Of a DNA stretch of 64,000 nucleotides, positions 866 to 61,722 are shown one piece after another. Location: assembly GCF_003018255.1 (NCBI RefSeq), contig NZ_CP027440.1. One strand, given 5' to 3'. Below the pieces are notes generated by a model, which saw only the letters and a program-made list of their open reading frames with translations, made no database searches and was not told where the DNA came from. How positions within the stretch are numbered: position 1 is the stretch's first letter; every line of letters begins with the position of its first letter. The translations under genes and the position numbers were made by a program. This DNA is from Escherichia coli. GTDB taxonomy: Bacteria; Pseudomonadota; Gammaproteobacteria; Enterobacterales; Enterobacteriaceae.

Positions 866-1330
866 ATGGAAAAGAAATTACCCCGCATTAAAGCGCTGCT
901 AACCCCCGGCGAAGTGGCAAAACGCAGCGGTGTGGCGGTATCGGCGCTGCATTTCTATGAAAGCAAAGGGTTGATTAGCAGTATCCGTAATAGTGGCAAT
1001 CAGCGGCGATATAAACGTGATGTGTTGCGATATGTCGCAATCATCAAAATTGCTCAGCGTATTGGCATTCCGCTGGCGACCATTCGTGAAGCATTTGGCG
1101 TGTTGCCCGAAGGGCATACATTAAGTGCGAAAGAGTGGAAACAGCTTTCGTCCCAATGGCGAGAAGAGTTGGATCGGCGCATTCATACCTTAGTGGCGCT
1201 GCGTGACGAGCTGGACGGATGTATTGGTTGTGGCTGCCTTTCGCGCAGTGATTGCCCATTGCGTAACCCGGGCGACCGCTTAGGAGAAGAAGGCACAGGC
1301 GCACGCTTGCTGGAAGATGAACAAAACTAA
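866..1330 (+). CDS. soxR: SoxR redox-sensing MerR-family regulator ([2Fe-2S])
   Basis: 154-aa ORF; N-terminal MerR-type HTH and C-terminal [12 protein letters not shown] cysteine cluster. Confidence 0.95.
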
Positions 1331-1355
1331 AGCGCCACAAGGGCGCTTTAGTTTG
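1323..1355. terminator. Bidirectional rho-independent terminator at soxR 3' end
   Basis: Inverted repeat AAACTAAAGCGCC..GGCGCTTTAGTTT straddling the soxR stop, with T-runs on both strands. Confidence 0.6.
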
Positions 1356-1465
1356 TTTTCCGGTCTTTGTCTTTCTCTCTATCCCGCTGGTACACAGGAG
1401 GGTTTCCCCCGACGTCAACACACCTCATTCGAGCACGTGGTGGAGGTTCCGGTTGGTGTTGATGC
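1325..1465 (-). ncRNA. ryjA: Candidate small RNA RyjA (convergent with soxR)
   Basis: Positional inference only: K-12 has a ~140-nt sRNA on the opposite strand ending at the soxR terminator. No sequence-intrinsic proof; boundaries approximate. Confidence 0.3.
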
Positions 1466-5107: not shown

Positions 5108-7068
<1,961 letters not shown>

Positions 7069-7149
7069 CACAGATTCTCCAGAGGTAATGTAGGGATTGT
7101 TTTAATTCCCGCTCCCTTATGGGAGAAGGTTAACGCTTGGGTAACCCTT

Positions 7150-7416
<267 letters not shown>

Positions 7417-7449
7417 AACCGTTACCGACTCGCATCGGGCAATTGTGGG

Positions 7450-9408
<1,959 letters not shown>

Positions 9409-16517: not shown

Positions 16518-17831
16518 ATGAAAAATATAAAATTCAGCCTGGCCTGGCAGATTCTGTTTGCTATGGTGCTGGGCATTCTCCTGGGAAGCTACCTGCACTA
16601 CCATAGCGACAGCCGCGACTGGCTGGTCGTCAATTTGCTCTCTCCGGCGGGTGATATCTTCATCCATCTGATCAAAATGATTGTTGTGCCGATTGTGATC
16701 TCCACGCTGGTGGTGGGTATCGCGGGTGTTGGTGATGCCAAACAGCTCGGGCGTATTGGCGCGAAAACCATTATTTACTTCGAGGTGATCACCACCGTCG
16801 CCATCATTTTGGGGATCACTCTGGCGAACGTCTTCCAGCCCGGTGCCGGGGTGGATATGTCGCAGCTGGCGACCGTCGATATCTCGAAATATCAGAGCAC
16901 TACGGAAGCGGTACAAAGCAGTTCCCACGGCATTATGGGCACGATTTTGTCGCTGGTGCCGACGAACATTGTGGCGTCGATGGCGAAAGGCGAAATGCTG
17001 CCGATCATCTTCTTCTCGGTGCTGTTTGGTCTGGGGCTTTCATCCCTGCCCGCGACGCATCGTGAACCGCTGGTGACCGTTTTCCGCTCCATCTCTGAAA
17101 CCATGTTTAAAGTGACTCACATGGTGATGCGTTATGCGCCGGTGGGTGTGTTTGCGCTGATTGCGGTGACGGTGGCTAACTTTGGTTTCTCGTCTCTGTG
17201 GCCACTGGCGAAACTGGTGCTGCTGGTGCATTTCGCCATTCTGTTCTTCGCGCTGGTAGTGCTGGGAATTGTGGCGCGCCTGTGCGGGTTAAGCGTCTGG
17301 ATCCTGATTCGTATTCTGAAAGATGAGCTGATTCTGGCGTACTCCACTGCCAGCTCTGAAAGCGTGCTGCCGCGAATTATTGAGAAGATGGAAGCCTACG
17401 GAGCACCGGCGTCGATCACCAGTTTCGTGGTGCCGACCGGTTACTCTTTTAACCTTGATGGTTCGACGCTGTATCAAAGTATTGCCGCTATTTTCATCGC
17501 GCAGTTGTATGGCATTGACCTGTCCATCTGGCAGGAAATCATTCTGGTGCTGACGCTGATGGTGACCTCGAAAGGGATTGCTGGCGTGCCGGGCGTGTCG
17601 TTTGTGGTGTTGCTGGCAACGCTGGGTAGCGTAGGTATTCCGCTGGAAGGTCTGGCGTTTATTGCCGGTGTTGACCGTATCCTCGACATGGCGCGTACTG
17701 CGCTGAACGTGGTGGGTAATGCGCTGGCGGTGCTGGTGATTGCCAAGTGGGAACACAAATTTGACCGTAAGAAAGCGCTGGCTTATGAGCGCGAAGTGCT
17801 GGGCAAATTTGATAAAACTGCGGATCAATAA
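16518..17831 (+). CDS. gltP: Glutamate/aspartate:proton symporter (DAACS family)
   Basis: 437-aa polytopic ORF recognised as GltP. Confidence 0.92.
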   Translation: MKNIKFSLAWQILFAMVLGILLGSYLHYHSDSRDWLVVNLLSPAGDIFIHLIKMIVVPIVISTLVVGIAGVGDAKQLGRIGAKTIIYFEVITTVAIILGITLANVFQPGAGVDMSQLATVDISKYQSTTEAVQSSSHGIMGTILSLVPTNIVASMAKGEMLPIIFFSVLFGLGLSSLPATHREPLVTVFRSISETMFKVTHMVMRYAPVGVFALIAVTVANFGFSSLWPLAKLVLLVHFAILFFALVVLGIVARLCGLSVWILIRILKDELILAYSTASSESVLPRIIEKMEAYGAPASITSFVVPTGYSFNLDGSTLYQSIAAIFIAQLYGIDLSIWQEIILVLTLMVTSKGIAGVPGVSFVVLLATLGSVGIPLEGLAFIAGVDRILDMARTALNVVGNALAVLVIAKWEHKFDRKKALAYEREVLGKFDKTADQ

Positions 17832-17871: not shown

Positions 17872-18247
17872 GCCTGATGCGACGCTTACCGCGTCTTATC
17901 AGGCCTACGCCAGACTGCGCAATAGCTTGATTTAGGGTGATTTTGTAGGTCGGATAAGGCGTTTACGCCGCATCCGACATCAATATCTGATGCGACGCTT
18001 GCCGCGTCTTATCAGGCCTACGCCAGACTGCGCAATAGCTTGATTTAGGGTGATTTTGTAGGTCGGATAAGGCGTTTACGCCGCATCCGACATCAATATC
18101 TGATGCGACGCTTACCGCGTCTTATCAGGCCTACGCCAGACTGCGCAATAGCCTGATTTAGCGTGATTTTGTAGGTCGGATAAGGCGTTTACGCCGCATC
18201 CGACATCAATGCCTGATGCGACGCTTACCGCGTCTTATCAGGCCTAC
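17872..18247. repeat. BIME/REP array, three full units plus one partial, 113-bp period
   Basis: CTGATGCG motif recurs at 17874, 17987, 18100, 18213 (exact 113-bp spacing); units contain REP palindromes; fills the gltP-yjcO spacer. Confidence 0.85.
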
Positions 18248-18248
18248 C

Positions 18249-18938
18249 TTAACCGTTAGTTAATTTTTCAAACTCTTCACACCCGGTATCAAACCCTTCC
18301 ATACAGCTCAGATTTAACCAGTGCAGCGCCTTTTGTTTGTTCTTCTCGATAAAACCTTCTTCACCGTTTAAGAACATCATTCCCGCCCAGTACTCGGAAT
18401 AACCGGTTCGGGAAATCGCAGAGCTGCGTTTGAAATACCAGGTTGCCTTGTCATCGTCGGCCTTAATGCCCACGCCGTTGGCGTAAATCAAACCAAGCAG
18501 CATTTGGGCATCGACGGCAGAGTCGTTCTCCAGATCTTCCGAGGCGTTTTCTAACAGCGAAATTGCCTTTGGATAATCCGGTTTACCCGCTTGCGTATTT
18601 ACCAGAATATGCGCCAGCGTTACTTCACCTTCTTTACTGCCCGCTTGCGCCGCTTTCTCTGCAAGAACTTTTGCTTGTGGATAGTCCAGACTGACCGGAT
18701 TGGTGATTTTGATCTGCGCTAACAGCGCGCAGGCATCAGCATCACCGCTGTCGGCGGCTTTCTGTGCCCAATATTCGGCTTTGCTCAAATCGCCGGAGCT
18801 AAACCAGCTGTCGGCAAGAAAATATTGTGCGCGTCGGTCCCCTGCCTCTGCTGCCTTTAAATACTGGCTGCCAGGCTCGGAGTCGTTCGCGTGGGCAAAG
18901 AATGTCAAAAACAACATCAATGCGATAATTTTTTTCAT
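18249..18938 (-). CDS. yjcO: Sel1-repeat periplasmic protein
   Basis: 229-aa ORF with signal peptide and Sel1-like repeats. Confidence 0.8.
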   Translation of the reverse strand: MKKIIALMLFLTFFAHANDSEPGSQYLKAAEAGDRRAQYFLADSWFSSGDLSKAEYWAQKAADSGDADACALLAQIKITNPVSLDYPQAKVLAEKAAQAGSKEGEVTLAHILVNTQAGKPDYPKAISLLENASEDLENDSAVDAQMLLGLIYANGVGIKADDDKATWYFKRSSAISRTGYSEYWAGMMFLNGEEGFIEKNKQKALHWLNLSCMEGFDTGCEEFEKLTNG

Positions 18939-19031: not shown

Positions 19032-21179
19032 TTACGCCAGTGCCGCTTCGCGCAGGCGAGTTTTCAACTTGTTGTACTCGTCAATCACGTACTGCTCGGC
19101 GGCGCGCTGATCGGCGATCGGCTCGACGCGCACGGCGCAGTATTTGTATTCCGGCGTTTTCGTAATCGGGCTTAAGTTTTCGGTCACCAGCTCGTTACAG
19201 GCACCAATCCACCACTGGTAGGTCATGTAAATCGCCCCTTTGTTCGGACGATCGCTGACCTGCGCACGGGTGATAATTTTGCCTTTACGCGAGTGCACCC
19301 AAACCAATGCCTCATCTTCAATACCCAGACGTTTGGCGTCTTCGGTATTGATTTGTGCGTAGCCAGGTTCATCAGCCAGCGCCGCCAGTGCCGCACAGTT
19401 ACCGGTCATCGAACGGCAAGAGTAGTGACCAACTTCACGCACCGTTGACAGTACCATCGGGTATTCGTCGGTGAGTTTGTCGATTGGCGCTACCCAGTCG
19501 CAGGTGAAGAACTGCGCCAGACCGTTCGGGGTATCAAACTTCTCTTTAAACAGATAAGAAGTCCCCTGATCGGCATCTGAAGTATCGCGGCAAGGCCACT
19601 GAATGAAGCCCAGTTCGCCCATTTTCTCGTAAGTCGCACCGTAGAAATCCGGGCACAGATGACGCAACTCGTCCCAGATCTCCTGGGTGTTGTTGTAGTG
19701 CATCGGATAACCCATACGAGTGGCAATTTCACTGATGATTTGCCAGTCCGTTTTCAGATCCCACTTCGGCTCAACCGCCTTGAAGAAACGCTGGAAGCCA
19801 CGGTCAGCCGCAGTAAACACGCCTTCATGCTCGCCCCACGACGTTGACGGTAAAATGACATCCGCCGCCGACGCGGTTTTGGTCATAAAGATGTCCTGAA
19901 CGATAACCAGTTCCAGATCTTCAAAGGCTTTACGTACTGCCGACAGTTCCGCGTCAGTTTGCAGCGGATCTTCGCCCATAATGTACGCCGCTCTCACTTC
20001 ACCATGCGCCACGCGGTGCGGCAGCTCGCTGATGCGATAGCCGGTATGAGCAGGCAGGCTTTCCACGCCCCAGGCTTTGGCGAATTTCTCGCGGTTAGCC
20101 GGATCTTTCACGTACTGATAGCCCGGATACGTATCCGGCAGCGCGCCCATATCGCAGGCACCCTGCACGTTGTTCTGACCACGAACCGGGTTTACACCCG
20201 CATGTGGCTTACCGAGGTTACCGGTCAGCATCGCGAGGCTGGTCAGAGAACGCACGGTTTCCACGCCCTGATAGAACTGGGTTACCCCCATGCCCCACAG
20301 GATGGCGGCGCTTTCTGCCTGGGCATACATCCGCGCCGCCTGACGAATCTCACTGGCGCTGACGCCGGTGATATCTTCAACCGACTCCGGCGTGTAGCCT
20401 TCAACGATTTTACGATACTCTTCAAAGCCTTCTGTACGGGAAGCGACGAACGCTTTGTCGTACAGATTTTCTTCAATAATGACATGGCCCATCGCATTCA
20501 ACAGCGCGATGTTCGAGCCGTTTTTCAATGCAATGTGCATGTCAGCAATGCGCGCGGTTTCAATTTTACGCGGATCGCAGACGATAATTTTCGCCCCGTT
20601 ACGTTTAGCGTTAATTACGTGATTCGCCACGATTGGGTGGGAATCCGCCGGGTTATACCCGAAAACGAACACTAAATCGGTATTATCAATTTCGTTAATA
20701 GCATTGCTCATTGCGCCATTACCGACCGATTGGTGCAGACCTGCAACCGATGGGCCGTGTCAGACACGAGCGCAGCAGTCAACGTTATTGGTACCAATAA
20801 CGGCGCGCGCAAATTTTTGCATTACATAGTTGGTTTCGTTACCCGTACCGCGCGAGGAGCCGGTCGTCTGGATGGCATCCGGACCGTACTTCTCTTTGAT
20901 GGCGCTCAGGCGCTCGGCAACGTAATTCAGTGCCTCATCCCAGGAAACAGGTTCGAGTTTGCCGCCACGCTGGCGACGGATCATGGGGGTTTTCAGGCGC
21001 GGGGTCAGGATCTGGGTATCGTTAATGAAGTCCCAGCCATAATAACCCTTCAGACACAGGGTACCCTGGTTGGTTTTCCCCTGCGCTGCCTCCGCCCGGA
21101 CGATTTTGCCGTTATCGACGACCAGGTTGATTTTGCAACCTGATGCGCAATAGGGGCAAACCGTGACGACTTTTTTCAT
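19032..21179 (-). CDS. fdhF: Formate dehydrogenase H, selenocysteine-containing (UGA recoded)
   Basis: 139-aa and 559-aa track ORFs are in frame across a single TGA at 20757..20759 (..CCARV-U-HGPSVAG..); total 715 codons; N-terminal CPYCASGC cluster. Confidence 0.92.
20715..20756 (-). other. SECIS hairpin immediately 3' of the fdhF UGA codon
   Basis: Sequence CACGGCCCATCGGTTGCAGGTCTGCACCAATCGGTCGG directly after the in-frame UGA can form the stem-loop expected for bacterial Sec insertion. Confidence 0.7.
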
Positions 21180-21230
21180 CGGTCTCGCTCCAGTTAATCA
21201 AATCACGCATACGCGCTCTCGACTACAGTA

Positions 21231-21246
21231 TGCATCTTTTATGCCA
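21231..21246 (-). promoter_or_regulatory. Sigma-54 (-24/-12) promoter of fdhF
   Basis: Minus-strand TGGCATAAAAGATGCA matches the TGGCAC-N5-TTGCA spacing (GG and GC 10 nt apart), ~50 bp upstream of the fdhF ATG. Confidence 0.6.
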
Positions 21247-21376
21247 CATTTTATTTGGGGTCATTCCCTGATATTACGGGCACTATTTATTCAAAACTCT
21301 GACGAAAAACAGGCTGTCGTCAGTTTTGACGTGACGAAACGAAATACCGCGTGACAGCCATCACGCGGTAGACATT

Positions 21377-22843
21377 TTATTTTTTCTCGACGATGGGAGC
21401 TGCCTGATACCCGCCGCCCAGCGATTTCATCAACTGAATGCTTTGGATCACCCGGCGGCTGTCCAGCATCAGTAATGACATCTCTTCGGCAAGCACTGGC
21501 AACCGGGCTTCGGTGGCCTGTAAGCGGCTGGTTAAGCCGCGCTGATAGGCGGCCTCGGCTGCGCGCTGGGCGAAGCGCGTTGCTTCCACGCGTTCCGCCT
21601 GCATCTCTCGCTCGTCGTTGAGGGTTTGCAGACGTGTGCCGTTGACGGCAATGTCACGCACCGCGTTCAATACTGACTGGTTGTAACGTTCAATCATCAT
21701 GTTGCTGGCGGTGCGAGTGCCTTCGAGATTGGCATTCAACCGTCCACCGTCAAACAGCGGCAATTTCAGACCCGGGATGAAGTTGAACTGGCGACTGGTT
21801 TTTTTGAATAAGGTATCCAGGTGGATGGAGTCCAGACCGAAAAACGCTTTGATATCAAAGCTCGGGTAGAACAGCGCCCGCGCGGAATCCACCTGATCTA
21901 ATGACGCCTGAACATACCAGCGCATGGCTTGCAGATCCGGGCGTCTGGCGAGCAACTCATAAGAGAGCGTTGCCGGAATGCCGGTCTGTACTCGTGGTAA
22001 TGCCACCGGTTTGATCTCCGGCATATCGCTGGCTCCCGCGCCAATCAATGCACGCAGAGATTCTCGCGTTTCAGTGATTTGCCCTTTGACGGCAGCAATT
22101 TGTTTATCGACCGCCAGAATCTGTGCCCGCGCGCCGTGGAAAGGCACTTGCGCTTCCAGACCGTGCGCCACTTTACTCTGGTGCGCTTTCACCGCGTAAT
22201 CAATCACATCGCGAGTTTGTTCTAACAGATCGAGCATCTGATAGCTGGCCTGCATACTGTAATAAAGCTGCGCTACGCCCGTGGTCAGCGATAGCTCTAC
22301 TGCTGCGGTTTCTGCCAGCGCGGCATTATGCGCGCCAATGGCGGCAGCAACCGCTGAGCGATGCACACCCCACAAATCGAGATCCAGTCCGGCAAACAAA
22401 CCGACTGTGGCTTCCGTATAGTACGGCCCGTCCATACCCAGTGCTGGCGCATCCATCGCATAAGGGCTTAAAAAGCCGTTCGCCGAGACGCGTTGGCGGT
22501 TGAGCATCCCTAACGCTGCGACCTGTAATTGTGAACCGGCATCTAACAAATCGGCCTGGGACTGCGCTTTTTCTTCCCGCAGTTTCGCTTCGGCGAGGGT
22601 GTGTGAACCACTTAGCGTCCGTTGGATCAGCGCATCCAGCTGCGGGTCATTGAGTTGTTTCCACCACTGCGCCTGCGGCCAGCCGGAGCTGGCAAGATGA
22701 ATATCATCGGCCAGTTTGATTTGTTCCGGTTTGAGCTGTTGATGAGGCGCAGAATCCTTACGTACCAGGGCACAGCCGGAAATCAGCGTCGTGCTGCCGA
22801 GAATGCTGCACAACAGCAGGCGTGAAAGTTGACGATTGATCAT
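21377..22843 (-). CDS. mdtP: Outer-membrane efflux lipoprotein (TolC-like OMF)
   Basis: 488-aa ORF with lipobox (LISGCA); overlaps the mdtO stop. Confidence 0.88.
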   Translation of the reverse strand: MINRQLSRLLLCSILGSTTLISGCALVRKDSAPHQQLKPEQIKLADDIHLASSGWPQAQWWKQLNDPQLDALIQRTLSGSHTLAEAKLREEKAQSQADLLDAGSQLQVAALGMLNRQRVSANGFLSPYAMDAPALGMDGPYYTEATVGLFAGLDLDLWGVHRSAVAAAIGAHNAALAETAAVELSLTTGVAQLYYSMQASYQMLDLLEQTRDVIDYAVKAHQSKVAHGLEAQVPFHGARAQILAVDKQIAAVKGQITETRESLRALIGAGASDMPEIKPVALPRVQTGIPATLSYELLARRPDLQAMRWYVQASLDQVDSARALFYPSFDIKAFFGLDSIHLDTLFKKTSRQFNFIPGLKLPLFDGGRLNANLEGTRTASNMMIERYNQSVLNAVRDIAVNGTRLQTLNDEREMQAERVEATRFAQRAAEAAYQRGLTSRLQATEARLPVLAEEMSLLMLDSRRVIQSIQLMKSLGGGYQAAPIVEKK

Positions 22844-24891
22844 TGCGTGGCTCCTTGTGCCTGTTCCGTGGCGGGCGTTAATGCCGGGGCTGTCCAGTCT
22901 GGCAAGCGGGCGAAAAGCTGGCAGACGTGTTGCTCCTGTTTTAATAAGGTCGGCAGGATGGCCTGCGAGGCGGGTGTTTCTTCAAGCGTTATTTGAGGAG
23001 AATGACTGAGTGCGGTAGCTACACCGGCGGCGTATTTCTCCAGGGCGTCGGCAAACTGACCTGCTCTGTCCGGCTGTAGTGCGTTATCCAGCGCCTGCGC
23101 CGAGTTCCAGGTAACATCCCAGGCGTGAAGAATATCGCGGCCCTGACGAATAACCGTTTGCGAACGTTCAATCAGTAATGCGCGTTCTTCGCTGTCCAGT
23201 TGACGCTCCAGCACCACGCGTTGGCACATCTCTTCACAGGCATTAAACGCCGCATGCAGACCTATGCGAATTTGCAGATAAGTGCGCAGAGCCGTGACTT
23301 CCTGCTGGCGTGGGATCCGCATTACTTTACTCAACATACCCAGCGCGCCAGCCAGTTTTTGCGGCAGCGTGCGCGCTTCGCTTTCAGGCCAGACAAAGGT
23401 GTAAATCACCGCCGACACCACGGTACCAATGATGATACCCAGAGCGCGATCGCGAATTTCCACCAGGTCGTACACCGGGCCAAAAACGTTTTCGAGCGTG
23501 GCGAGCGCGAAGGTGACCACCATCTGTGTGCCGATATAAGAAGAGCGTTCAGAGCTGGTGGCAATCCATGCGCCCAACAGGAAAATCGGTGCCAGCACAA
23601 ACAGCAATTCGACAATATTGTCCAGCCAGGGCATGACCAATAACGTGAATAACAGCGCCAGAATCGCGCCGCAAAAGGCCCCGCCAAAACGCAGCACCAT
23701 CTTCTGGTACGACGAACCGACATTGGGATTAGCGACGATCACGCAGGTCAGCATACAGGTGTGAATGCCTTCCCAGTCCACGCCGCTGTAGAAGGTGTAA
23801 CAGATCAAACAGGCGAGCAGCGTTTTTACCGCGTAGCGCATATAGTCTGGATTGGTAAAAGCGTCGGCGACCATTGATGGCGGTTTGGTGGCGGGCGTTG
23901 GCGGCGTATTCGGGTCCATCTGACCCAGTTGCAATAACGTCTGGCAGATATTCTCCAGGTTACATTCCCGTGCCGCCATCGCTTCACTTTCAGTGATCCG
24001 CCAGTCGCTTTGCCAGCACTGACCTTCGGCAATGGCATGCTGCAGCTTGTTGATTTCTGAGGCTAATTTTTGCCGAAATTCAATAATTGCCTGAGAATCA
24101 GCAAAAGAGGTGGGATCGTAGCGATTCAGCGTCGAGTAAATGTAGGTTACCGTTGCCACGCAGCTTTGCCACCATGCGCTCTGAGTTCGCCAGTTGGCAT
24201 CGTCCGCGAGGCAAAAGACATTGAGTTTTTGCAGCGCCAGCGCCTCTCTTTCAATCCGCGTTTCGGGTAGCGGTGCGAGGCTGTCCGTCAGGTGGCTAAT
24301 GGCATCATCAAGCCGATCATTAAGCGCCTGATGCATCTGCGTGATAGCGCGGCTGGGAAACCACAGCACGCCGATTAACGTCATCAGCAAGGTTGGATAG
24401 AGGCCGACAACGATACACCACAGGGTTAAGCGCACGACCACTTCCGGATAGTCGAGCATGGCGGGGAAGGTTTGCCCGTAAATAGCGACTATGGCGACGG
24501 CGAAAAAGACCAGCCCCAACCGATGGGTGCGCATCAAAAACATACAGCCCATCAGGATCGGTCCGGCGATGATCAATCGGATCAACGGTTCGCCGTATGA
24601 CCATTTGTAGATCAAAAACAGGCTGCCGATCTCCAGCACCGTGGCAACCACAAACAAGATCGCGACAAATTTGGTGTAAAACGCGTTCGACTGAATACCG
24701 TAAAACAGCACTGCCAGCGATAACGCCACAAAAGGGATCTCAAAGGTCATCGAGATCAGAATTACCAGCAGGCAGCCTACCCAGAGTTGCACGGTCTGCG
24801 GCACGCGACCTGGCCGCCGCTCGCTTAACTCTTCATGAAAGAACGCCAGCAGCCTGACCACCGGTAATGGCAGGGAGTTGAGCGCGCTCAT
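22840..24891 (-). CDS. mdtO: Inner-membrane efflux component (FUSC/PET family)
   Basis: 683-aa ORF with N- and C-terminal hydrophobic blocks; overlaps the mdtN stop. Confidence 0.88.
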   Translation of the reverse strand: MSALNSLPLPVVRLLAFFHEELSERRPGRVPQTVQLWVGCLLVILISMTFEIPFVALSLAVLFYGIQSNAFYTKFVAILFVVATVLEIGSLFLIYKWSYGEPLIRLIIAGPILMGCMFLMRTHRLGLVFFAVAIVAIYGQTFPAMLDYPEVVVRLTLWCIVVGLYPTLLMTLIGVLWFPSRAITQMHQALNDRLDDAISHLTDSLAPLPETRIEREALALQKLNVFCLADDANWRTQSAWWQSCVATVTYIYSTLNRYDPTSFADSQAIIEFRQKLASEINKLQHAIAEGQCWQSDWRITESEAMAARECNLENICQTLLQLGQMDPNTPPTPATKPPSMVADAFTNPDYMRYAVKTLLACLICYTFYSGVDWEGIHTCMLTCVIVANPNVGSSYQKMVLRFGGAFCGAILALLFTLLVMPWLDNIVELLFVLAPIFLLGAWIATSSERSSYIGTQMVVTFALATLENVFGPVYDLVEIRDRALGIIIGTVVSAVIYTFVWPESEARTLPQKLAGALGMLSKVMRIPRQQEVTALRTYLQIRIGLHAAFNACEEMCQRVVLERQLDSEERALLIERSQTVIRQGRDILHAWDVTWNSAQALDNALQPDRAGQFADALEKYAAGVATALSHSPQITLEETPASQAILPTLLKQEQHVCQLFARLPDWTAPALTPATEQAQGATQ

Positions 24892-28410: not shown

Positions 28411-28682
28411 ATAAATCTCCATTTATCATTTATGTCGTAAATATGTAATCCATGCAAAATACGTCATTTAAAGCTGGCGTTATCATAATTGGGAAATTGC
28501 GACTTTAATAAGTAGAAGTGTGAGCGGAACGAGCCATTTTATTAGGCATTTGTGCTGAAGAGGGAAAAGTACAGTAGAACTATCATTGCTGGGAATAATA
28601 TGGGCTGTTTTATGTAATTATTATATATATTGTACCTGTCGTTGGCACAGCGGGACATTGCGCTACTGTGCCAACGCTTTAC

Positions 28683-30291
<1,609 letters not shown>

Positions 30292-44931: not shown

Positions 44932-45018
44932 GTAGGCCGGATAAGGTGCTTGCACCGCATCCGGCATCAACGTCTGCACATTGTCGGATGCGACGCCGGG
45001 GCGTCTTATCCGACCTAC
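44932..45018. repeat. REP pair inside the phn operon (phnD-phnE spacer)
   Basis: GTAGGCCGGATAAGGTGCTTGCACCGCATCCGGCA and GTCGGATGCGACGCCGGGGCGTCTTATCCGACCTAC. Confidence 0.8.
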
Positions 45019-46062: not shown

Positions 46063-46851
46063 TCAGGCAGCTTTCGCGTTCTCTTCAATGCGATTAATGC
46101 TGCGGTAGAGATGGTCAAAACGTTCGTTATCAAACAGTTGGCTGCTGCCGTCGTAAAAGACGTGCCCCTGACGCAGGGCGACGATGCGTTCGCAGTAGCG
46201 CAGGGCGTAATCCACCTGATGTAGCGTGACGACCACGGTGATGCCGTCGTTCTGGTTGATGTCGCGCAGGGTGTCCATCACGATGCGCGCCGATTCCGGG
46301 TCCAGCGAGGCGATGGGTTCGTCCGCCAGAATCACCTTCGCCTGCTGCATCAGCGCGCGGGCAATCGCCACACGCTGTTGCTGTCCGCCGGAGAGGGTGG
46401 AAACGCGCTGATGGGCAAAGTGCACCATGCCAACGCGGGTCAGCGCCTGTAACGCGCGCTGTTTCTGCTCGCGGGTGAAGTAGCTAAAACAGGTGCGCCA
46501 GAATGGCGTGCTGCCGAGCGCGCCAATCAGCACGTTCTCCAGTACGCTCAGGCGATTCACCAGGTTGAATTGTTGGAAGATGTAGCCGGTATTGGCGCGG
46601 CTTTTGCGGATATCGCGGGCCAGGCGGCCTTCGCGCTGGACTGTGCGGCCCAGCAGCTCGATATGGCTACCGGCAGATTTATCGCCGGTAATCAAACCGC
46701 TTAAGTGACGTAAAAGGGTGGATTTGCCGGAACCCGACGGCCCAAGCAGAGCCACCATTTCACCGTGATGAATGTTCAGATCAACCGCGTGCAGCGCCTG
46801 ATGCTGATTGAAGGTTTTGGCGAGCTTCTCGACACGGATAATCGTTTGCAT
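46063..46851 (-). CDS. phnC: Phosphonate ABC transporter ATPase
   Basis: 262-aa ORF with Walker [10 protein letters not shown] and LSGGQQQR signature. Confidence 0.92.
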
Positions 46852-47471: not shown

Positions 47472-47580
<109 letters not shown>

Positions 47581-53193: not shown

Positions 53194-53243
53194 GCTGAAA
53201 CGGATGGCCTGATGTGACGCTGTCTTATCAGGCCAATTGAACT

Positions 53244-53260
53244 CTTAAGGTTCACTTAAT
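53244..53260 (+). promoter_or_regulatory. BasR/PmrA box upstream of pmrR
   Basis: CTTAAG-GTTCA-CTTAAT, ~45 bp upstream of the pmrR ATG. Confidence 0.6.
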
Positions 53261-53304
53261 CTCTGACGCGCATACTCTCCTCCAGGTTAACGGAGGAGAG
53301 TGCA

Positions 53305-53394
53305 ATGAAAAACCGTGTTTATGAAAGTTTAACTACCGTGTTCAGCGTGCTGGTGGTCAGCAGCTTTCTTTATATCTGGTTTGCCACGTTCTGA
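53305..53394 (+). CDS. pmrR: PmrR small membrane peptide (29 aa)
   Basis: ATG preceded by GGAGGAG RBS; encodes MKNRVYESLTTVFSVLVVSSFLYIWFATF. Below the ORF-track length cut-off; overlaps basS 3' end antisense. Confidence 0.7.
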   Translation: MKNRVYESLTTVFSVLVVSSFLYIWFATF

Positions 53395-54470
53395 TCTTTC
53401 TTCAGCCGTACCCAGGCCCGCGTGCCGGAAGTCTCTTGCCGGTTTTGCAGGAAAAACTGCCCGTGATGCAACTGTGTAATGCGGCTGACAATACTTAACC
53501 CCAGACCAATCCCGCCATAACGGCTGTCCATACGTACAAACGCTTTACTCAACTCCCCGCATTTACTCTCATCAATACCCGGTCCTTCATCTTCAACGGC
53601 CATGACCGCTCCGCCATCTTCTTGCAGCTTAATCATAATGTTGCTGCCTTGCGGGCTGTAACGATGGGCGTTTTCTACCAGGTTTCGCAATAACATCCGC
53701 AGCAGGGTTGCATCACCCTGAACGGTGATGTCGGCGGCGCTCTCTGGCAATAGCAGGTTTTGCTGTCGCTGGTCGAGCATGGTACTGAGTTCGTCATACG
53801 AGGGGAGAATGACATCTTCCAGCAGTTTTACATGTTGATAATTACCGGAAGAAAATGACTGTCCGGCACGCGCCAGTTGCAGCAGCTGGGAGACACTCTC
53901 CATCATCTGATCAAGTCGAGCCACTAACGGTGCTACATCAATGTGATGCGTTTTCGCCAGCAGTTCCAGATGCAAACGCACCCCCGCCAGTGGCGTTCGC
54001 AGTTCGTGCGCGACGTCAGCGGTAAACAACCTTTCGTTATCCAGCGTGCTGGTCAGGCGACTGACCAGATCGTTCAACGCCGAAACCACCGCTTCGATTT
54101 CGAGGGTGGCGCTGTGAATGGCAATAGGCGTTAAGTTGTCGGCGGTGCGCGCTTCCAGCTCTTTTTGCAGCTCCGCCAGCGGCCGGGTGATGCGGCGTAC
54201 CGCCTGATAGCAGATAAATAGCGTCAGGCTGACCATAAAGACGCCGGGGACGATCAGGCTGGCGACCGCCTCGCGGATCTCACGCATGATGTGGCGATCG
54301 TTGTTGCGATTGTCGCGTAGCGCCTGCTCAAACAGCTGAATCTGCTCGGTACTTTCATGCCATAGCCAGAAGACGCTGATCAGCTCAAACACCAACAAAA
54401 TGGCCCCAATGGTCAATATCAGCCGTTGGCGCAGCGATATTGGTCGGCGCAGAAAACGCATCAGATTCAA
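53370..54470 (-). CDS. basS: Sensor histidine kinase BasS/PmrB
   Basis: ~363-aa ORF with H-box ADVAHELRTPL; exact start uncertain. Confidence 0.9.
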   Translation of the reverse strand: MNLMRFLRRPISLRQRLILTIGAILLVFELISVFWLWHESTEQIQLFEQALRDNRNNDRHIMREIREAVASLIVPGVFMVSLTLFICYQAVRRITRPLAELQKELEARTADNLTPIAIHSATLEIEAVVSALNDLVSRLTSTLDNERLFTADVAHELRTPLAGVRLHLELLAKTHHIDVAPLVARLDQMMESVSQLLQLARAGQSFSSGNYQHVKLLEDVILPSYDELSTMLDQRQQNLLLPESAADITVQGDATLLRMLLRNLVENAHRYSPQGSNIMIKLQEDGGAVMAVEDEGPGIDESKCGELSKAFVRMDSRYGGIGLGLSIVSRITQLHHGQFFLQNRQETSGTRAWVRLKKDQNVANQI

Positions 54471-59454: not shown

Positions 59455-61722
59455 TTACGCTTTCACACACATAACGTGGTAAATACCGTCAATAATTTCT
59501 GTCCCTTCTGTTTCGTGTTCAAATCCAGGGAAATGATGGTCCCAGGATTGCAGCGAGCGTAAATAACTTACTTGCGGACTGTTTTTATCGCCGAAGTTTT
59601 CACCAGACAGCAGCATCGGGATTCCTGGCGGATACGGGATAACTGAGTTTGCCGCGATACGTCCTGGCAGATTTTCAATGGATACCAGTTCGACATTGTT
59701 GTCGACAATCGCGTTGTACGCTTCACGCGGGGTGATTTCCGCCACCGGCAGGCCGGAATAGGCTTCGTTCAACCGTGCGCCAGGGTTGTTTTCTTTCAGC
59801 CAGGCAAACATGGTGTCACCCAGATCGTGAATCCCCATGTTCGCGTAAGTGTCAGGATATTGTTCAACAAGTTCCGGCATCACCTGCGCCAGCGGTGTGT
59901 TGGCGTCATAGTGGCGTTTGAAGGAGCAAAGGGTGTTAACCAGAGTCCCCCATTTCCCACGGGTTACGCCCATAGAGAACAGGAACATAATTTGGAAGTC
60001 AGTGGTGCGGGTAGGCACAATGCCGTGGCGACCAAGCCAGGCAGTGACCAGCGCCGCCGGAACACCGGTTTCTTCCAGTTCACCATCTTCACCCATTCCC
60101 GGAGCAAGGATGCTGACTTTAATCGGGTCGAGCATACTCCAGTTATCCGGAATATCTTTGAAGCCGTGCCAGCTTTCGCCCGGATGCATTACCCAGCAGT
60201 CCTGAACGGTGGTCAGCAGTTTGGTTGGTGCGTCAGCAAAGTCATAGGTTTTGCCGGTTTGTGGGTCGGTGACGACTTCTTTGTTCCACGGTTTGAAGAA
60301 CCAGCTACCGTCAGCGGTGAACTCTTTATACAGCCGCGCCATCGCCTGACGAAAATCAACCGCTTCGTCGATCACTTCCTGCGTCAGTGACAGGCCGCTG
60401 TTGCCGTCCATCATCGACACCGCCACGTCGTTGGATGCGCAGATGGCATACAGCGGGGAGGTGGTGGCATGCATCATGTAGGCCTGGTTGAAGCGGGAGA
60501 AGTTAATCGCCCCACGACCTTCACGTACATGAATATAAGAGGCCTGTGACAGTGCATTCAGCAGTTTGTGGGTGGAGTGGGTGGCGAAAACGGTAGGACC
60601 GTTGTGATCGCCAGGTTCGCCGCGCATGGCATAGTGATCGGCATAGATCGGGTTGAAACGTGCATAGCCGTACCAGGCTTCGTCAAAGTGCAGACGATCG
60701 GAGGTTTTTTCCAGCAGATCCTGCGCTTCTTTAGCGTTATAACACACGCCGTCATAAGTACAGTTGGTCACCACGCAGTAAGACGGTTTTTGCCCGGCTT
60801 TGTCTTTAGTCAGCGGGCTTTCACTGATTTTCTTCTGCAAGGTTTCAGGTTGCATTTCCTGCGGATAGATTGGCCCGATAATGCCGTAGCGGTTGCGGCT
60901 TGGCACCATGTAGACCGGTTTCGCGCCTGTCAGCATCAAGCCTTGTTCGATGGATTTATGGCAGTTACGGTCAACGACCACGACATCGTTATCGGTCATG
61001 CAAGCCTGCATGATAGTGCGGTTAGAGCCGGAAGTACCGACGACTACCGACCAGGAGCGATCGGCACCAAATACGCGTGCGGCATATTTTTCGCTTTCGC
61101 CAAATGCGCCAGTATGGTCAAGCAAAGAACCGAGGGAAGTGCGTTCGATGCCCATGTCGGTGCGGAACAGATTTTCACCATAGTAGTCATGGTAGAAACG
61201 TCCGGCGGGTGTTTTGGTAAAACCAACGCCACCCTGGTGGCCTGGCGCTGCCTAGGAATATTCATGGATGTCGCTATATTTCATCAGCGCGCTGAACAGT
61301 GGCGGCAACAGTTGCTGGCGGTAGCGGGTCATCGCGGCAACGGCGCGTCCGGCGATAAAGTCGGCGGTATCTTCCAGAATCCAGGCGAATTCATCGACAA
61401 GCTCCAGCAGATCCCGGTCCATTGCGGCGAGGGCTTTTTCCCGATCGCCCAACAGGAAGACCGGCACGTTTTGTTGGCGCTCATGAAGCTTACCGATCAA
61501 TTGTCTGACGTTTTGATGTTCGTCCGGATGTTCCATTTGATAGCTGAACATCAGGCAGTCAATGGCTTCGTTTGAAGAGAGAATGGCAAAACCATCATCA
61601 AAGGAGGTGGATTTAATCACGGTAACATTTTGCTGGCTTAAAGCATCTGCCAGACGCTCAACGGCGTTACCGACCCAGGTGTCTTGATGGAGAAACTCGC
61701 TTTCAACAATTAATACTTTCAT
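59455..61722 (-). pseudogene. adiA: Biodegradative arginine decarboxylase interrupted by an in-frame amber codon (TAG at 61252..61254)
   Basis: Track ORFs of 157 aa and 566 aa are in the same frame, separated by one TAG; translation reads ..KYSDIHEYS-stop-AAPGHQGGVGFTK.., where intact AdiA has Trp (TGG) as I recall it. Everything else is in frame for the 755-codon gene. Confidence 0.8.

Follow-up and report, generated by a model that had tools for sequence, protein, structure and literature searches.

The σ54-dependent promoter of the Escherichia coli fdhF gene and a conserved candidate FhlA enhancer upstream of it

Introduction

An archetype of σ54-dependent transcription is the glnAp2 promoter, which has a GG-N10-GC core and is served by NtrC, an AAA+ ATPase acting from an enhancer about 100 bp upstream by DNA looping. 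The promoter of fdhF, fdhFp, is a classic case of control by σ54 and an enhancer outside nitrogen metabolism. It differs from glnAp2 in its activator and signal (FhlA and formate at fdhF) and in the sequence of its enhancer. The fdhF start site and its upstream activating sequence (UAS) were reportedly first mapped by Birkmann et al. in 1987, Birkmann and Böck in 1989 and Schlensog et al. in 1994. The gene product, formate dehydrogenase H, oxidises formate as one half of the formate hydrogenlyase complex, which evolves hydrogen, and the promoter ties its synthesis to intracellular formate during fermentation.

The scheme of a σ54 promoter and its enhancer-binding protein, as at glnAp2, has been described (PMC4987338). 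FhlA is reported to sense and bind formate, to attach to DNA ahead of both fdhF and hyc, and to work with σ54 (PMC11291172, PMC11841067). In E. coli K-12, σ54 ChIP-seq gave peak OS41, with a fold-above-threshold value of 41, for the motif GTGGCATAAAAGATGCA on the minus strand at fdhF; its predicted start lies 41 nt before fdhF, and the site carries the EcoCyc flag 'C', experimentally confirmed (PMC4591121, Bonocora et al. 2015). The PSSM score of OS41, 10.976, falls inside the range of confirmed σ54 promoters in the same table, which include hydN (9.2) and hypA (14.1). The fdhF/mdtP spacer was also bound in vitro by the RpoN holoenzyme in genomic SELEX (PMC8743547, Shimada et al. 2021). In Salmonella, the fdhF site TGGCATAAAACATGCATA was bound by σ54 with a 10-fold ChIP enrichment, and fdhF expression was 29-fold σ54-dependent (PMC3844500). 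The fdhF promoter of Proteus mirabilis is less active in rpoN and fhlA mutants, and formate and anaerobiosis induce it (PMC7658346).

Here we describe a putative σ54 site at positions 21231 to 21246, minus strand, of a 64,000-nucleotide stretch of E. coli DNA (the window). The site had been picked out from the letters of the window alone as a sigma-54 promoter for fdhF, and we compare it with the systems above, with three unlinked formate-regulon promoter regions of K-12 (hydN, hyfA and hycA-hypA) and with fdhF loci from other genera.

Results and Discussion

Sequence and position of the -24/-12 core

Read directly from the window, the minus strand from 21246 to 21231 is TGGCATAAAAGATGCA. It carries the GG-N10-GC arrangement named in the original prediction, with GG at 21245-21244, GC at 21233-21232 and a spacing of exactly 10 nt. 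The 3' end of the motif stands 51 nt from the fdhF ATG (21179-21177), in agreement with the distance of about 50 bp that had been given. The whole promoter core, G-TGGCAT-AAAAGA-TGCA-T, occupies 21230-21247 on the minus strand and was delimited by its sequence, its matrix score and its identity with K-12 OS41. Numbered from the predicted start, the GG is at -25/-24 and the GC at -13/-12.

The bare motif is no rarer in the window than chance would have it. With up to 2 mismatches, TGGCACNNNNNTTGCW matched the 64-kb window 36 times against 45 +/- 6 expected, and TGGCA-N7-TGCA matched it once against 1.33 expected; there was no excess of either. Every position on both strands was then scored with a σ54 count matrix built from 186 published promoters (PMC7658346, Table 2). 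The fdhF site scored 13.79 bits out of a maximum of 21.05 and ranked third among the 127,970 window positions, a score not above chance window-wide, as first-order Markov random windows contain 2.24 +/- 1.70 sites this good. For the 197-nt spacer between mdtP and fdhF, sense strand only, the expectation came to about 0.003 (scaled from the Markov figures). Since the motif alone is no rarer than chance, the case for a promoter rests on context and conservation; the motif is real, and it is significant in context only.

Two other positions outscored the fdhF site in the matrix scan, TGGCGCGGCTTTTGCG at 46593-46608(+) with 15.07 bits and TGGCAGACGTGTTGCT at 22919-22934(+) with 14.88 bits. Both are antisense within ORFs, 46063-46851(-) and mdtO (22840-24891, minus strand), respectively. 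Neither mdtO nor mdtP, by gene name or b-number, occurs in the main text of PMC4591121.

These frequencies would suit a chance or non-productive σ54 site, with fdhF mRNA arising from a different promoter or from mdtP read-through, and so would the report that most of the 135 E. coli σ54 ChIP sites are intragenic and of unclear function (PMC4591121). Against this, the fdhF site is intergenic and in the sense orientation, with a predicted start 41 nt from the ATG, and it is among the sites flagged as experimentally confirmed in that same study.

The fdhF gene, mdtP and the spacer between them

The coding sequence downstream of the core lies at 19032-21179 on the minus strand and has 715 codons. 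Its product matched TIGR01591 (formate dehydrogenase alpha; cutoff 666) with 1095.7 bits. An in-frame TGA is codon 140 of the translation (20762-20760), and the Rfam element SECIS_2 (RF01988) lies over it at 20713-20767(-) with 87.1 bits (gathering score 70). Together with the RefSeq annotation, these matches identify the gene as fdhF, as had been proposed; FdhF is a formate hydrogenlyase component, as the product of an FhlA-regulon target should be. The program-made list of open reading frames cuts the gene in two at the selenocysteine TGA codon.

The start of transcription was predicted with the rule used for the K-12 ChIP-seq sites, which sets it 19 nt past the centre of the motif (PMC4591121). 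With the centre at 21239, the rule places the start at 21220 and predicts a 41-nt 5' UTR (21180-21220, minus strand). A Shine-Dalgarno sequence, GGAG, can be read at 21191-21188, 8 nt ahead of the fdhF ATG.

Upstream and co-oriented with fdhF is mdtP (21377-22843, minus strand; NF007390, 1022 bits, and annotation), whose stop codon at 21379-21377 forms the far edge of the 197-nt regulatory spacer. A terminator scan and RNA folding located a putative intrinsic terminator of mdtP at 21335-21370 on the minus strand. It is composed of a hairpin (21370-21345) with an 11-bp stem including 6 GC pairs, followed by the T-rich tail TTTCGTTTCG. The hairpin folds with -19.6 kcal/mol (z = -4.6), and 0 of 200 shuffled sequences were as stable. 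A scan of 21100-21500 for σ70-like promoters found none. A σ70 promoter or mdtP read-through as the main source of fdhF transcription was rejected on the strength of these two results, both of which also speak against a chance σ54 site.

The junction between the two genes is widespread. An 801-nt query across the junction found matches in 5,419 of 5,426 complete E. coli genomes, where RefSeq names the two genes mdtP and fdhF. In strain O150:H6 FEX669, which matches the query at 100%, the gene downstream of fdhF encodes an ABC-transporter substrate-binding protein (7044-8612 of fetched region L001). In the window, the corresponding flank holds a 229-amino-acid ORF (18249-18938, minus strand) with the size and position of K-12 yjcO. 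The gene content 3' of fdhF thus differs between FEX669 and the window, which shows that the downstream flank of fdhF varies among strains.

Comparison with fdhFp of K-12

A 231-nt stretch over the spacer was 99% identical to K-12 MG1655 in alignment. K-12 fdhFp has the identical 17-mer GTGGCATAAAAGATGCA with its centre 60 nt from the ATG, the same predicted 41-nt leader, a spacer of the same 197 nt and an identical enhancer. The spacer of the window differs from that of K-12 at two bases only, 21369 (A vs G) and 21255 (A vs C). The first belongs to the terminator stem and the second lies 9 nt upstream of the -24 T, so that the boxes and the enhancer are untouched.

Because the two spacers are nearly identical, the experiments performed with K-12 transfer directly to the window. 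The site is almost certainly fdhFp, from which E. coli transcribes its formate dehydrogenase H gene with σ54. This promoter is already known from K-12; the window shows the same element in a different strain. The call of a σ54 promoter is upheld by the identity with OS41, the RpoN SELEX result, the rpoN dependence in Salmonella and Proteus and the cross-species comparison below. Made from the letters only, the original prediction had the right position, strand and spacing, the right target gene and the right range for the enhancer, and the locus can serve as a positive control for such calls.

Conservation of the promoter upstream of fdhF in other genera

A total of 120 loci were fetched from one-genome-per-species contigs by their match to a degenerate pattern that encodes the FdhF N-terminus (CPYCASGCKI), and 400 nt upstream of each match were scored. 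As the loci were chosen by coding sequence only, there was no selection on the promoter. A σ54 site of at least 12 bits was present upstream, on the sense strand, in 76 of the 117 scorable loci. At the same threshold, the reverse strand gave 0 of 117 and 400-nt coding controls gave 2 of 106; median σ54 scores were 13.4 bits for the sense strand, 3.4 for the reverse strand and 8.9 for coding sequence. Retention of the site at the orthologous position, compared with its absence from the control strand, argues against a chance occurrence at fdhF.

The σ54-positive loci came from Escherichia, Salmonella, Citrobacter, Enterobacter, Klebsiella, Raoultella, Kluyvera, Kosakonia, Buttiauxella, Cedecea, Hafnia, Edwardsiella, Proteus, Providencia, Morganella and Arsenophonus. 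The σ54-negative loci were those of Pasteurellaceae, Oxalobacter and other Burkholderiales, Desulfovibrio, Budvicia/Pragia and Orbaceae, and also second fdhF-like copies in some Enterobacteriaceae.

In the 65 non-redundant positive loci, TGGCA and TGCA were invariant, which is partly due to selection by the matrix. The six spacer positions between them varied (AAAAGA, AGAAGC, AGATAA, AAACCC, GCTTCA and others), and the T that follows TGCA (21230 here), which lies outside the matrix, was 100% conserved. Judged from these alignments, fixed boxes with a free spacer are the pattern expected of a functional -24/-12 promoter.

The fdhF site of Salmonella Typhimurium (STM4285), TGGCATAAAACATGCATA, has one spacer substitution relative to the window, G->C. 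At the P. mirabilis fdhF locus (L118), TGGCACAGTCTCTGCAT precedes the Cys-8 codon by 80 nt and has TCGACA/TCGTCA sites upstream of it. P. mirabilis fdhF shares with its E. coli counterpart the dependence on rpoN and fhlA and the induction by formate (PMC7658346), but it has another spacer sequence and a longer enhancer distance and is without the enhancer-promoter blocks of Enterobacteriaceae.

A conserved palindrome and its flanking repeats form a candidate enhancer

Upstream of the core, at 21318-21331, is the perfect palindrome CGTCAAAACTGACG, of the form CGWCA-N4-TGWCG, which we propose as the core of the enhancer (UAS) and a putative FhlA binding site. Its centre is at about -104.5 from the predicted start, and it lies 78 nt upstream of the -24 T. 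The palindrome was found in 61 of the 65 non-redundant σ54-positive loci, 42 of which have it 78-79 nt before the -24 T. Among all scorable loci it was present in 73 of 76 σ54-positive and 0 of 41 σ54-negative ones (Fisher p = 2e-28, uncorrected for phylogeny). It was seen once in the coding controls, and its overall frequency, with the fdhF sites counted in, was about 1 per 12 kb. The only other CGWCA-N4-TGWCG match of the window (2 in total) is CGACATTGTTGTCG at 59691-59704, which lies within ORF 59455-61155(-) and probably arose by chance.

The palindrome is flanked by an exact 8-mer direct repeat. One copy of TTTCGTCA (21332-21339, minus strand, -119 to -112) abuts it on the upstream side; this half-site is kept as TTCGaCA in 34 same-register loci and overlaps CATTTCGT, a half-site of the published FhlA consensus (PMC4987338). 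The second copy (21307-21300, -87 to -80) is spaced 32 nt from the first, which reads from 21339 to 21332. It is contained in a proximal block, GCCTGTTTTTCGTCAGAGTTTTGA, at 21291-21313 on the minus strand, which was delimited by conservation and by repeats D4/I4/I5. At a level of at least 80% in the 34 same-register loci, the consensus of the proximal block is gcCTGtTTTTCGTCAG.gTTTtG. Many genera's upstream regions align gap-free when anchored on the -24 element. Over the whole enhancer the consensus of the 34 loci is TTCGaCACGTCAA.t.TGACGA..gcCTGtTTTTCGTCAG.gTTTtG, and the sequence further upstream is not conserved. In S. enterica subsp. arizonae (locus L085) the same enhancer blocks stand in the same register as in the window; further upstream, the sequence at Salmonella fdhF is unlike that of the window.

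A distal GTCAC at 21351-21355 on the minus strand (-135 to -131) stands about 31 nt, or three helical turns, from the centre of the palindrome on its upstream side. A GTCAC whose start lies 28-32 nt upstream of that centre was seen in 42 of 61 loci. The original prediction had expected activator sites within 21290-21370, and the enhancer blocks at 21291-21340 and the GTCAC at 21351-21355 all fall inside this range. In E. coli, the terminator hairpin of mdtP includes the distal GTCAC in its 3' arm, so that terminator and enhancer overlap.

The distance from enhancer to promoter falls into classes of about 69, 78, 100, 104 and 112 nt. A Rayleigh test on the 14 distinct distances gave p of about 3e-4 to 8e-4 for periods of 10.5-11, with adjacent values being non-independent and the 104-nt class a misfit. 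Such spacing would fit looping that is constrained to one face of the helix, and we take it as supportive only.

That the enhancer palindrome goes with the σ54 site across loci is a further point against a chance site, and rpoN dependence of the gene has been demonstrated in both Salmonella (PMC3844500) and Proteus (PMC7658346). Taken together with the intergenic position, the orthologous conservation, the stable terminator and the scan for σ70-like promoters, this makes a chance or non-productive site very improbable.

FhlA as the probable activator

In K-12, the palindrome recurs as CGACACTAGTGACG at hydN, about 69 nt before the -24 T (521-534 of fetched region L124), and as CGACACGGGTGTCG at hyfA, about 102 nt before the -24 T (536-549 of fetched region L125), compared with 78 nt at fdhF. 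The distances at hydN and hyfA fall in classes met among the fdhF orthologues (69/78/100/112), which suggests helical phasing. The full CGWCA-N4-TGWCG palindrome was not found in the K-12 hycA-hypA spacer. This spacer is rich in related half-sites, TTTCGTCG (aaTTTCGTCg), TGTCGA, CATTTCGACA and TCGACA. The hydN, hyfA, hycA and hypA promoters thus share with fdhF a -24/-12 core and upstream sites of the CGWCA/TGWCG type.

The published 16-mer FhlA consensus, CATTTCGTACGAAATG, is taken from Leonhartsberger 2000 as quoted in PMC4987338. With up to 3 mismatches, it had no match anywhere in the window. The likeness of the spacer to the consensus is at the level of half-sites only (tATTTCGT, gTTTCGTCA and tTTTCGTCA), and the quoted CATTTCGTACGAAATG appears to be an idealised half-site dimer. 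With a matrix of 13 FhlA sites (PMC7658346, Table 2), the best score in the spacer was 8.22 of 17.65 bits and fell on the palindrome; the matrix discriminates poorly, and this score ranked 110th in the window. The matrix was dropped as a discriminating test for this reason.

The missing consensus match and the mediocre matrix score would be expected if fdhF, though σ54-dependent, had another enhancer-binding protein as its main activator, for example NtrC or the FhlA paralogue HyfR. The presence of the same type of palindrome upstream of hyfA, which is also activated by HyfR, points in the same direction. The palindrome is also found at hydN, however, and hydN is listed in the FhlA/formate regulon (PMC3844500, PMC11841067). 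The TTTCGT half-sites in the fdhF spacer overlap the published FhlA half-consensus, and fdhF itself is stated to depend on FhlA and formate, with FhlA binding upstream of it (PMC11291172, PMC11841067, PMC4987338). The drop in P. mirabilis fdhF promoter activity in an fhlA mutant (PMC7658346) tells against another main activator as well. The mismatch to the consensus weakens the motif match and not the functional assignment to FhlA, and we find a different main activator scarcely credible.

FhlA stays the preferred activator of fdhF, and the formate- and FhlA-dependent anaerobic expression that had been foreseen for this promoter is in accordance with the literature (PMC7658346, PMC11291172, PMC11841067). 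From its co-occurrence with the σ54 site and its recurrence across the regulon, rather than from a footprint, we infer that the palindrome is a FhlA site. The phylogenetic footprint describes this putative FhlA enhancer more cleanly than the published consensus strings do. The increments beyond what was known of fdhFp are this enhancer footprint, the overlap of the distal GTCAC with the mdtP terminator, and the conserved block at 21257-21280 considered below.

A model for fdhF transcription

RNA polymerase with σ54 binds the -24 element TGGCA and the -12 element TGCA at 21246-21231, and transcription needs both rpoN and fhlA and responds to formate and anaerobiosis by induction, as others have demonstrated on identical or orthologous sequence. 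For the further steps, we propose that the closed complex would be unable to open unaided. FhlA, an ATPase activated by cytoplasmic formate, may bind a composite enhancer about 70-135 bp upstream, made up of CGTCAAAACTGACG, the flanking TTTCGTCA half-sites and the distal GTCAC at roughly whole-helical-turn spacing. It would reach the polymerase by DNA looping, and ATP hydrolysis would then open the promoter. Transcription is predicted to begin near 21220 and to give the 41-nt leader. The mdtP terminator hairpin probably shields fdhF from upstream transcription, and full-length FdhF would further require SECIS-directed selenocysteine insertion at UGA-140.

Conserved sequence at 21257-21280

A further conserved block, CCCGTAATATCAGGGAATGACCCC, is located between the enhancer and the -24 element at 21257-21280 on the minus strand (-60 to -37), and was recognised by its conservation. 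Its consensus in the 34 same-register Enterobacteriaceae loci is CGTAa.aTC.G..aATaCCCac. By eye, the block has 1 mismatch to the IHF core WATCARNNNNTTR, and possibly it is a bending or IHF-like site. In one source, the listed targets of IHF are hyc, hyp and fhlA, and fdhF is not among them.

The spacer may hold inputs that have not been described, namely this block as a target of a bending protein or another regulator, the distal GTCAC, whose position is kept from genus to genus, and the distance classes, which differ by about one helical turn among genera and regulon members. We regard this as a rather doubtful proposal. If true, it would give a more precise grammar of the FhlA enhancer, CGWCA-N4-TGWCG with phased half-sites, than the published consensus strings.

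Other features of the window

Clusters of naRNA4 (RF02564), a REP-type repeat, were found at 7160-7412, 17948-18244, 44935-45015 and 47492-47569. Four naRNA4 copies lie between ORF 16518-17831(+) and the yjcO-like ORF, just downstream of fdhF. Two small RNA genes scored above the Rfam gathering score, sraL at 1323-1463(-) with 153 bits and STnc630 at 53236-53401(+) with 178.5 bits.

Genomic SELEX also gave an RpoN peak in the yjcS/alsK spacer (PMC8743547). By coordinate offset, this peak would map to about 28575-28752 of the window, approximately 7.3 kb beyond the fdhF spacer. Two matches to a relaxed σ54 consensus are found near yjcS/alsK, at 28575-28590(+) and 28737-28752(-) (TGGCGCTCAGGGTGCA).
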